Positions 1,418 to 2,108 of a stretch of DNA of 64,000 bases are shown in pieces. The notes under the pieces were generated by a model. The model worked only from the letters and a program-made list of their open reading frames with translations. It was not told where the DNA came from and ran no database searches. Within the stretch, counting starts at the first letter, position 1. The number at the start of each line of letters is the position of its first letter. The DNA is from Escherichia virus TH41. The stretch lies in sequence record MT446412.1; one strand, given 5' to 3'. Position numbers and translations under genes: made by a program.

Positions 1418-1653
1418 TGTCTGAACAAACTATTGAACAAAAACTGCAGTCCGAAATCGTTATCCTTAAATCCCGTATTCTGGACACTCAAGACCAGGCT
1501 GGCCGCATTAAAGCTGAATCTGACCAGTTTGTTAATGCACTTGGTCAGATTGCCCAGCTGGTTGGCGTGACCGGTGAAACTGTTAAGCTGGAAGATGTTA
1601 TCCAGGCTGTCGCTGATAAAATTGCACCGGCACCTGCAGCTGACGAAGAATAA
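1417..1653 (+). CDS. 57A: tail fiber assembly chaperone gp57A
   Basis: 78 aa, [10 protein letters not shown]...[13 protein letters not shown] matches T4 gp57A; position after gene 1. Confidence 0.75.
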
Positions 1654-2108
1654 TGACATTAAATGAAGTCTCTGAAGGACTTTATGTTGCAGCCAAATTT
1701 TCAGAATTAACTCTTGATGCGCTGGAAAATCTCCAGCGCTCTCTTAAAGTACCTAATCCCGTTCCTCGCGAAAAATTCCATTCCACCATTTGTTATTCCA
1801 GAGTAAATATTCCGTATGTTGTTGCTTCTGGTAGTTTCGAAGTCGCTAACTCTGGACACCTGGAAGTGTGGAAAACTGATGATGGGAGCACCCTGGTTCT
1901 TGTACTGAATTCAGATTATCTTAGTTGCAGACATATGTATGCACGAGCCATTGGCGCAACACATGATTTCCCGGACTATACTCCTCACATAACATTATCC
2001 TATAATGTTGGTCCTTTGACGTATAAAGGAGAAGTTCAGATTCCGGTTGTTTTAGACCGTGAATATAAAGAACCGCTAAAATTAAATTGGTCGGCGGATT
2101 TAAAGTAG
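1653..2108 (+). CDS. 57B: 2H phosphoesterase, 57B/Acb1-like (anti-CBASS cyclic-nucleotide phosphodiesterase homolog)
   Basis: 151 aa with two H-x-[ST]-x motifs (H43-S-T-I and H112-I-T-L); syntenic with T4 57B. Confidence 0.7.

Follow-up and report, generated by a model that had tools for sequence, protein, structure and literature searches.

Escherichia virus TH41 very probably encodes a functional Acb1, the orthologue of T4 gp57B, beside a variable array of internal-protein-like genes

The window considered here was the whole analysed stretch of 64,000 nucleotides from Escherichia virus TH41 (MT446412.1, one strand). Its open reading frame (ORF) at 1653..2108 very probably encodes a functional Acb1, namely the Gaprivervirus orthologue of phage T4 gp57B, a small and metal-independent 2H phosphoesterase. 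An earlier sequence-only reading had proposed such a 57B/Acb1-type phosphoesterase with a likely role against CBASS (an antiphage signalling system based on cyclic oligonucleotides), and this was borne out by the Pfam score and by end-to-end alignment with the Acb1 proteins of T4 and FBB1. The gene was already known: Acb1 was described in 2022, its crystal structures and a Pfam family are available, and it is annotated in near-identical phages. The gene was intact and displayed the following features.

1653..2108, + strand: coding sequence of acb1 (57B orthologue) with ATG start, 151 codons and TAG stop, assigned from the ORF listing, Pfam, PDB and identity to T4.
1779..1787, + strand: first catalytic motif H43-S44-T45, corresponding to T4 H44-x-T46 by alignment position mapping.
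1986..1994, + strand: second catalytic motif H112-I113-T114, corresponding to T4 H113-x-T115 by alignment position mapping.
2082..2105, + strand: C-terminal lid, window residues 144-151 (T4 residues 145-152, lid as defined in PMC9117128), including the base-stacking W146.

The protein belonged to Pfam family PF23474 'Anti-CBASS protein Acb1', which it matched with 200.3 bits (E 1.5e-59, residues 8-148 on profile positions 1-143/144), about sevenfold above the curated gathering cut-off of 27. Among all PDB chains (phmmer), the best match was Acb1 of Erwinia phage FBB1 (7T26/7T27, E 3.7e-62), residues 9-147 of the query aligning with residues 2-141 of the 7T26 chain at 69% identity over 139 residues; weaker matches were to another Acb1 (9Q2G/9Q2Y). 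The only other Pfam match, to 2_5_RNA_ligase2 (PF13563), was confined to residues 90-121 and reached 11.9 bits (E 0.24) against a cut-off of 27. The protein was found by tblastn in 1,478 phage records of the collection searched. Identity reached 100% in Escherichia phage CJ20 and 82.8% in T4-type Tequatroviruses, e.g. RB32 and T6. The homologue of Klebsiella phage PhiKpNIH-6 (MN395284.1), at 501..956 of the fetched locus, was intact over 151 residues and displayed 71.5% identity (tblastn). In that record the annotation covers only a truncated coding sequence of 71 amino acids (locus 741..956), apparently because the start codon was mis-annotated.

The two motifs of the H-x-[ST] type, H43-S-T and H112-I-T, were located where the sequence-only reading had placed them, and the ORF contained no others. 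When the 151 residues were shuffled 20,000 times, 15% of the resulting sequences also carried two or more such motifs. The pair was therefore rejected as sufficient evidence by itself, and the case for Acb1 rests on full-length homology, which exceeds chance by far.

T4 gene 57B (NP_049750, version NP_049750.1, from NC_000866) served as reference. The window protein (151 residues) aligned with its product (152 residues) without internal gap, 125 of the 151 residues (83%) being identical. T4 has one extra residue at the N-terminus, so that T4 numbering equals window numbering plus one. All nine catalytic and ligand residues of T4 were kept, i.e. H43, T45, H112, T114, Y11, W73, F106, E140 and W146, which correspond in this order to T4 H44, T46, H113, T115, Y12, W74, F107, E141 and W147. 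The alignment of the catalytic histidines with those of T4 Acb1, which had been suggested earlier as a check, hence gave a positive outcome, H43/H112 falling on H44/H113. The 26 substitutions were clustered at residues 2-8, at residues 123-127 and at lid positions 145, 147 and 148. The lid read LNWSADLK in the window and LDWADDLK in T4; its tryptophan was kept while three of its eight residues were substituted (N145 for D, S147 for A and A148 for D).

An alignment of nine sequences was drawn from Gaprivervirus, Tequatrovirus (two), Dhakavirus, Kanagawavirus, Jiaodavirus, Marfavirus, Bragavirus and FBB1. H43, T45, H112, T114, Y11, E140 and W146 were invariant in all nine, and W73 and F106 were replaced solely in FBB1, by other aromatic residues. 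The FBB1 enzyme, crystallised in apo form (7T26) and in complex with 3'3'-cyclic GMP-AMP (3'3'-cGAMP; 7T27), had the catalytic tetrad, the tyrosine, the glutamate and the lid tryptophan in common with the window protein. It differed by conservative aromatic swaps, W73 being replaced by F and F106 by Y, and by a one-residue insertion after G78. The LigT branch of the 2H superfamily and Acb1 alike carry two H-x-T/S motifs and use metal-independent acid-base chemistry via a 2',3'-cyclic phosphate. The sequence similarity of the window protein to the LigT/2'-5' RNA ligase branch (PF13563) was negligible, as indicated by the sub-threshold match above; Acb1 is smaller than members of that branch and possesses a lid as well as a pocket shaped for cyclic oligonucleotides.

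The description of T4 57B as Acb1, on which the earlier proposal had relied, was confirmed by the literature: the T4 protein was identified by activity-guided fractionation as the enzyme degrading 3'3'-cGAMP (Hobbs et al. 2022, PMC9117128). In T4/FBB1 Acb1 the scissile phosphate lies over the HxT/HxT tetrad H44, T46, H113 and T115, Y12, W74, F107 and W147 provide base stacking, E141 contacts adenine N6 and residues 145-152 form the lid (PMC9117128). The H44A/H113A mutant was inactive and T4 without acb1 was restricted by CBASS (PMC9117128). The gene was conditionally required on a CBASS-expressing host (10.1101/2025.11.20.689424), and its expression in T4 was predominantly middle/late (10.64898/2026.03.30.715471). 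Acb1 also degrades the cyclic triadenylate cA3 in vitro (PMC13577387).

By analogy, the window enzyme would bind a cyclic di- or trinucleotide made by CBASS (3'3'-cGAMP, cyclic UMP-AMP (cUA) or cAAA/cA3) in a U-shaped pocket, where Y11, W73, F106 and W146 would stack on the bases, E140 would read adenine N6 and the C-terminal lid (residues 144-151) would close over the ligand. The tetrad H43/T45/H112/T114 would then provide acid-base catalysis for the attack of an adenosine 2'-OH on the 3'-5' phosphodiester, leading through a cyclic-phosphate intermediate to a linear 3'-phosphate product. Removal of the signal would keep the CBASS effectors inactive and allow the phage to complete its cycle. 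Expression is expected together with the upstream gene 57A, whose stop codon overlaps the acb1 start, and, in line with the T4 report, in the middle/late period.

Several points weigh against this assignment. Substrates, chemistry and the anti-CBASS phenotype are those we infer from experiments on T4 and FBB1, activity being thus attributed by orthology. With 26 residues differing from T4, including N145, S147 and A148 of the lid and F42 beside the catalytic H43, the enzyme might deviate from T4 Acb1 in details of its substrate range. In PHROGs the protein was placed in phrog_755, whose legacy description reads 'RNA ligase', a name that the gene also retains in many GenBank records. The NCBIfam scan of the window protein gave no match at E up to 1 and no family model. 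A single-sequence AlphaFold2 model of the 151 residues was unusable (mean predicted local distance difference test score 38.8, predicted template modelling score 0.32), so that the fold was assigned from the 69% identity to a crystal structure (1.1 Å) and not from an independent model. Finally, the octamer TATAAATA, a consensus for T4 late promoters that was matched upstream of 57A and acb1, occurred six times in the window for 4.7 expected, i.e. not above chance, and promoter assignments therefore stay tentative.

The name given by PHROG 755, by RefSeq and by many GenBank records for T4 and related genes would imply an RNA ligase, a LigT-like 2'-5' RNA ligase or a 2',3'-cyclic phosphodiesterase acting on RNA ends, for instance in tRNA repair, without any role on cyclic nucleotides. 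Membership in the 2H superfamily, which includes LigT, and the weak Pfam match to 2_5_RNA_ligase2 point in the same direction, but that match stood at 11.9 bits (E 0.24, cut-off 27) compared with 200 bits for Acb1, the T4 orthologue degrades 3'3'-cGAMP and T4 deleted for it becomes sensitive to CBASS (PMC9117128, 10.1101/2025.11.20.689424), and all ligand contacts of the cGAMP complex were kept in the window protein. An 'RNA ligase' identity, which goes back to legacy annotation only and conflicts with both the Pfam scores and the experiments on T4, was thus rejected as highly improbable; a side activity of the window Acb1 on RNA 2',3'-cyclic ends might still exist. Decay of the gene had to be considered as well. 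Tevenvirinae with a naturally disrupted acb1 exist, e.g. phage Bas43, such disruption being selected for by Panoptes (PMC13577387), and the window gene could likewise be an inactive remnant kept solely for its overlap with 57A. The ORF was full-length, devoid of stop or frameshift, and all catalytic residues were intact. Compared with T4, 61 codons were identical, 64 differed only synonymously and 26 non-synonymously (73.7% nucleotide identity); the corresponding numbers were 138, 13 and zero for VR20 (97.1%) and 132, 18 and one for EAWsc9 (95.8%). This large excess of synonymous changes, with zero to one non-synonymous against 13 to 18 synonymous codons relative to close relatives, indicates that acb1 is maintained by purifying selection and is not a remnant like that of Bas43. 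Together with the intact catalytic residues it led to rejection of a pseudogene identity, whose probability was considered vanishingly small.

A functional Acb1 might also have its main target outside CBASS, such as cA3 or other cyclic oligoadenylates of type III CRISPR (clustered regularly interspaced short palindromic repeats) or of other cA3 systems, or might display a shifted substrate range. The enzyme does degrade cA3 in vitro and an intact acb1 triggers Panoptes (PMC13577387), three of eight lid residues differ from T4, and the window carries in addition an Acb2 sponge, so that the signals dealt with by Acb1 and by Acb2 could differ. All named ligand contacts were nevertheless identical to those of T4, and N145, S147, A148 and F42 also occur in other genera (N145 and S147 in Jiaodavirus), which looks like ordinary family variation. 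CBASS is moreover the sole system for which a phage phenotype was demonstrated with the T4 orthologue, and a different main target or a shifted range was regarded as very unlikely. A related and more elaborate proposal holds that N145, S147, A148 and F42 shift the range, for example by sparing the Panoptes decoys, and that Acb1, the internal proteins and Acb2 form a tuned, multi-layered counter-defence set. The sequence offered nothing for it beyond ordinary family variation, and it appears very unlikely. Acb1 as an anti-CBASS phosphodiesterase was retained for the window gene.

Over its first 6 kb, the window was 99.5% identical to Escherichia phage UPEC01 and 94-98% identical to the other Gapriverviruses TH44, EAWsc9, ECML-359, VR20 and SP18; it was assigned to Gaprivervirus. 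The gene is annotated as 'RNA ligase/cyclic nucleotide phosphodiesterase' in UPEC01 and already as 'anti-CBASS protein Acb1' in EAWsc9. The region upstream of acb1 and the spacer that follows it contained the features below.

144..743: gp3 tail completion protein, first in the order gp3, gp1, 57A, acb1.
740..1417: gp1 dNMP (deoxynucleoside monophosphate) kinase, between gp3 and 57A.
1199..1206, + strand: candidate T4 late promoter inside gene 1, upstream of 57A-acb1, by match to the consensus TATAAATA.
1417..1653, + strand: 57A tail-fibre chaperone (Pfam GP57, 87.6 bits; PHROG 1002).
2109..2137, + strand: promoter-like site TGTACA-17 nucleotides-TATTAT, directly after the acb1 stop and before the first internal-protein gene.
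2117..2149, + strand: stem-loop in the spacer separating acb1 from the first internal-protein gene, with a centroid fold of -16.5 kcal/mol.

The 57B position claimed in the sequence-only reading was found as described: the ORF directly follows the 57A homologue, its ATG overlaps the 57A stop, and it occupies the same slot as in T4, after 57A and before internal-protein genes. The order 3, 1, 57A, 57B was the same in T4 and in the window. The order dNMP kinase, 57A, 57B was encountered in six further genera, for which gene 3 lay outside the stretch fetched. In every related locus examined, 57A was immediately 5' of 57B, the two genes either abutting or sharing a few bases. The overlap of the 57A TAA stop with the acb1 ATG amounted to one base in the window (TAATG), compared with four nucleotides in T4, and suggests translational coupling of the two genes.

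Gene 1 of T4 likewise contained a late-promoter consensus, on its coding strand. The site at 2109..2137 aligned with GTTTACA ... TACTAT in T4, JK45 and PhiKpNIH-6, and we take it to match the -35 consensus GTTTAC of T4 early promoters. The stem-loop at 2117..2149 overlapped the -10 part of this early-promoter-like site, GT(G/T)TACA ... TAyTAT; the minimum-free-energy fold of the 73-nucleotide stretch at this place reached -16.7 kcal/mol (z -2.1). At the equivalent place in T4 (about 7900..7930, - strand, fetched locus L003) a 13-bp hairpin of different sequence was found (z -4.8), and JK45 and VR20 also possessed a stem-loop between acb1 and the internal-protein gene. An intrinsic-terminator scan detected none directly after acb1, the hairpin at 2117-2149 being devoid of a T-run; PhiKpNIH-6 displayed a classic terminator ahead of the same promoter motif instead of the hairpin. 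The stem-loop might stabilise the acb1 message at its 3' end or, alternatively, mask the promoter.

Downstream of this spacer, five internal-protein-like ORFs extended to position 3733, whereas T4 has a single ipI after 57B. They are listed here with the promoter-like sites lying among them.

2169..2501, + strand: ORF 1 (MNIKTYNEFLAE...), 110 amino acids; PHROG 3966 (unknown function), N-terminus aligned with T4 Ip1, start annotated in UPEC01.
2493-2500: octamer TATAAATA just upstream of ORF 2, consensus match.
2510..2782, + strand: ORF 2 (MKTFNEF...), 90 amino acids; PHROG 7673 internal head protein (E 2.5e-56), Ip9 in VR20.
2791..3090, + strand: ORF 3 (MQTFHEF...), 99 amino acids; PHROG 2667 internal head protein (E 1.3e-21).
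3091-3119: promoter-like site TGTACA-17-TATAAT upstream of ORF 4.
3146..3424, + strand: ORF 4 (MKTYQEFINE...), 92 amino acids; PHROG 15565.
3479..3733, + strand: ORF 5 (MKTYQEFITE...), 84 amino acids; PHROG 8111 internal virion protein (E 1.4e-13).

The assignment of these ORFs to the internal-protein class relied solely on their capsid-targeting N-terminus and on PHROG matches, which named an internal head or virion protein for three of the five. All five started with M(NI)K/Q-T-Y/F-x-E-F, T3, E6 and F7 being invariant with T4 Ip1. As read from the sequences, L/I-x-E occurred within the first 16 residues of each, and (L/I)-x-E is the cleavage rule of the prohead protease for T4 internal proteins. 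The ORFs thus share with T4 Ip1/Ip2/Ip3 the N-terminal capsid-targeting motif, and with T4 the position of the ipI locus. Overall identity to T4 Ip1 was 18-28%, at background level beyond the N-terminus, and none of the five matched Pfam IPI_T4, the Ip1 inhibitor domain, to which T4 Ip1 itself scored 180 bits. The N-terminal signal is known as a capsid-targeting sequence, and T-even internal proteins are diverse injected anti-restriction proteins (PMC3012670), T4 Ip1, Ip2 and Ip3 each inhibiting a different GmrSD type IV enzyme (PMC12373910). A counter-defence role of the array is for this reason a reasonable expectation.

The sequence-only reading had regarded 1653-3733 as one compact counter-defence island, which was only partly supported. 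The adjacency of acb1 to the five internal-protein-like ORFs was real and is conserved in T4; a single module was not supported, as the ORFs lacked Ip1-domain matches and had their own promoter-like sites, and cassettes were swapped while acb1 stayed fixed. Homology to T4 ended at the acb1 stop, identity in aligned columns beyond it being 39.5%. ORF 4 was identical in VR20 and was replaced in EAWsc9 by an unrelated gene of 80 amino acids (36% identical), while ORF 5 was near-identical in EAWsc9 and its slot, the fifth, was occupied in VR20 by ip6 (35% identical). VR20 names two of the array genes, ip9 (window ORF 2) and the ip6 just mentioned. Such cassette exchange took place among Gapriverviruses that are 94-97% identical in the region and whose Acb1 differs by zero to one residues. 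In other genera, the gene after 57B was not an internal protein. A single co-inherited island was hence rejected, array cassettes varying between close relatives in which acb1 was conserved, and 1653-3733 is better described as a hypervariable locus of injected proteins with a conserved anti-CBASS gene at its border.

A second internal-protein-type array of four ORFs was found on the + strand at 16621..17780, directly after denV (16159..16575), i.e. at the T4 ipII/ipIII position. Its members are given below.

16621..16938, + strand: ORF starting with MKTYQEFITES.
16952..17215, + strand: ORF starting with MKTYQEFITES.
17275..17472, + strand: ORF starting with MLTYKEFMKE.
17481..17780, + strand: ORF starting with MKTYQEFITEA.

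Pfam searches of these four ORFs returned nothing significant, with a sub-threshold match for 17275..17472 only. The window thus contained nine candidate injected proteins, five beside acb1 and four after denV. As starting points for finding new anti-defence functions, these nine uncharacterised internal-protein-like genes are more promising than acb1.

The practical value of the acb1 assignment lies in annotation, the correct label being anti-CBASS phosphodiesterase Acb1 where close relatives carry 'RNA ligase' or 'hypothetical protein'. Many phage records, including 57B of T4 NC_000866, still bear one of these two names despite the characterisation of Acb1 in 2022. The assignment is also relevant when the host range of T4-like phages intended for therapy is to be predicted: where acb1 is intact, the phage is expected to resist many CBASS systems and to be sensitive to Panoptes guard systems. 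Both type I and type II Panoptes respond to the loss of their decoy nucleotides, and both restrict phages whose acb1 is intact (PMC13577387).

Other features of the window were as follows.

18973..19251, + strand: ORF of 92 amino acids, full-length homologue of T4 Vs.4 = Acb2 (PDB 7UQ2 'Vs.4', E 1.7e-28; Pfam PF24729 Acb2_Tad1_hairpin, 56 bits, cut-off 27).
20983..21462, + strand: ORF of 159 amino acids that closely follows the vs gene and contains a Macro domain (Pfam PF01661, 33 bits, cut-off 22).
5237..5389, + strand: two tRNA genes, one with a CAT anticodon (Met according to ARAGORN, Ile2 in the EAWsc9 record) and one for Arg-TCT.

The signal-degrading Acb1 and the signal-sequestering Acb2 were located about 17 kb apart, as in T4. 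Macro domains bind or remove ADP-ribose, and the ORF at 20983..21462 could be relevant to defences based on ADP-ribosylation. The two tRNAs were the only matches in an Rfam scan of the whole window, none lying near acb1. The corresponding region of T4 contains eight tRNAs, the homing endonuclease gene segB and the small RNAs C and D.

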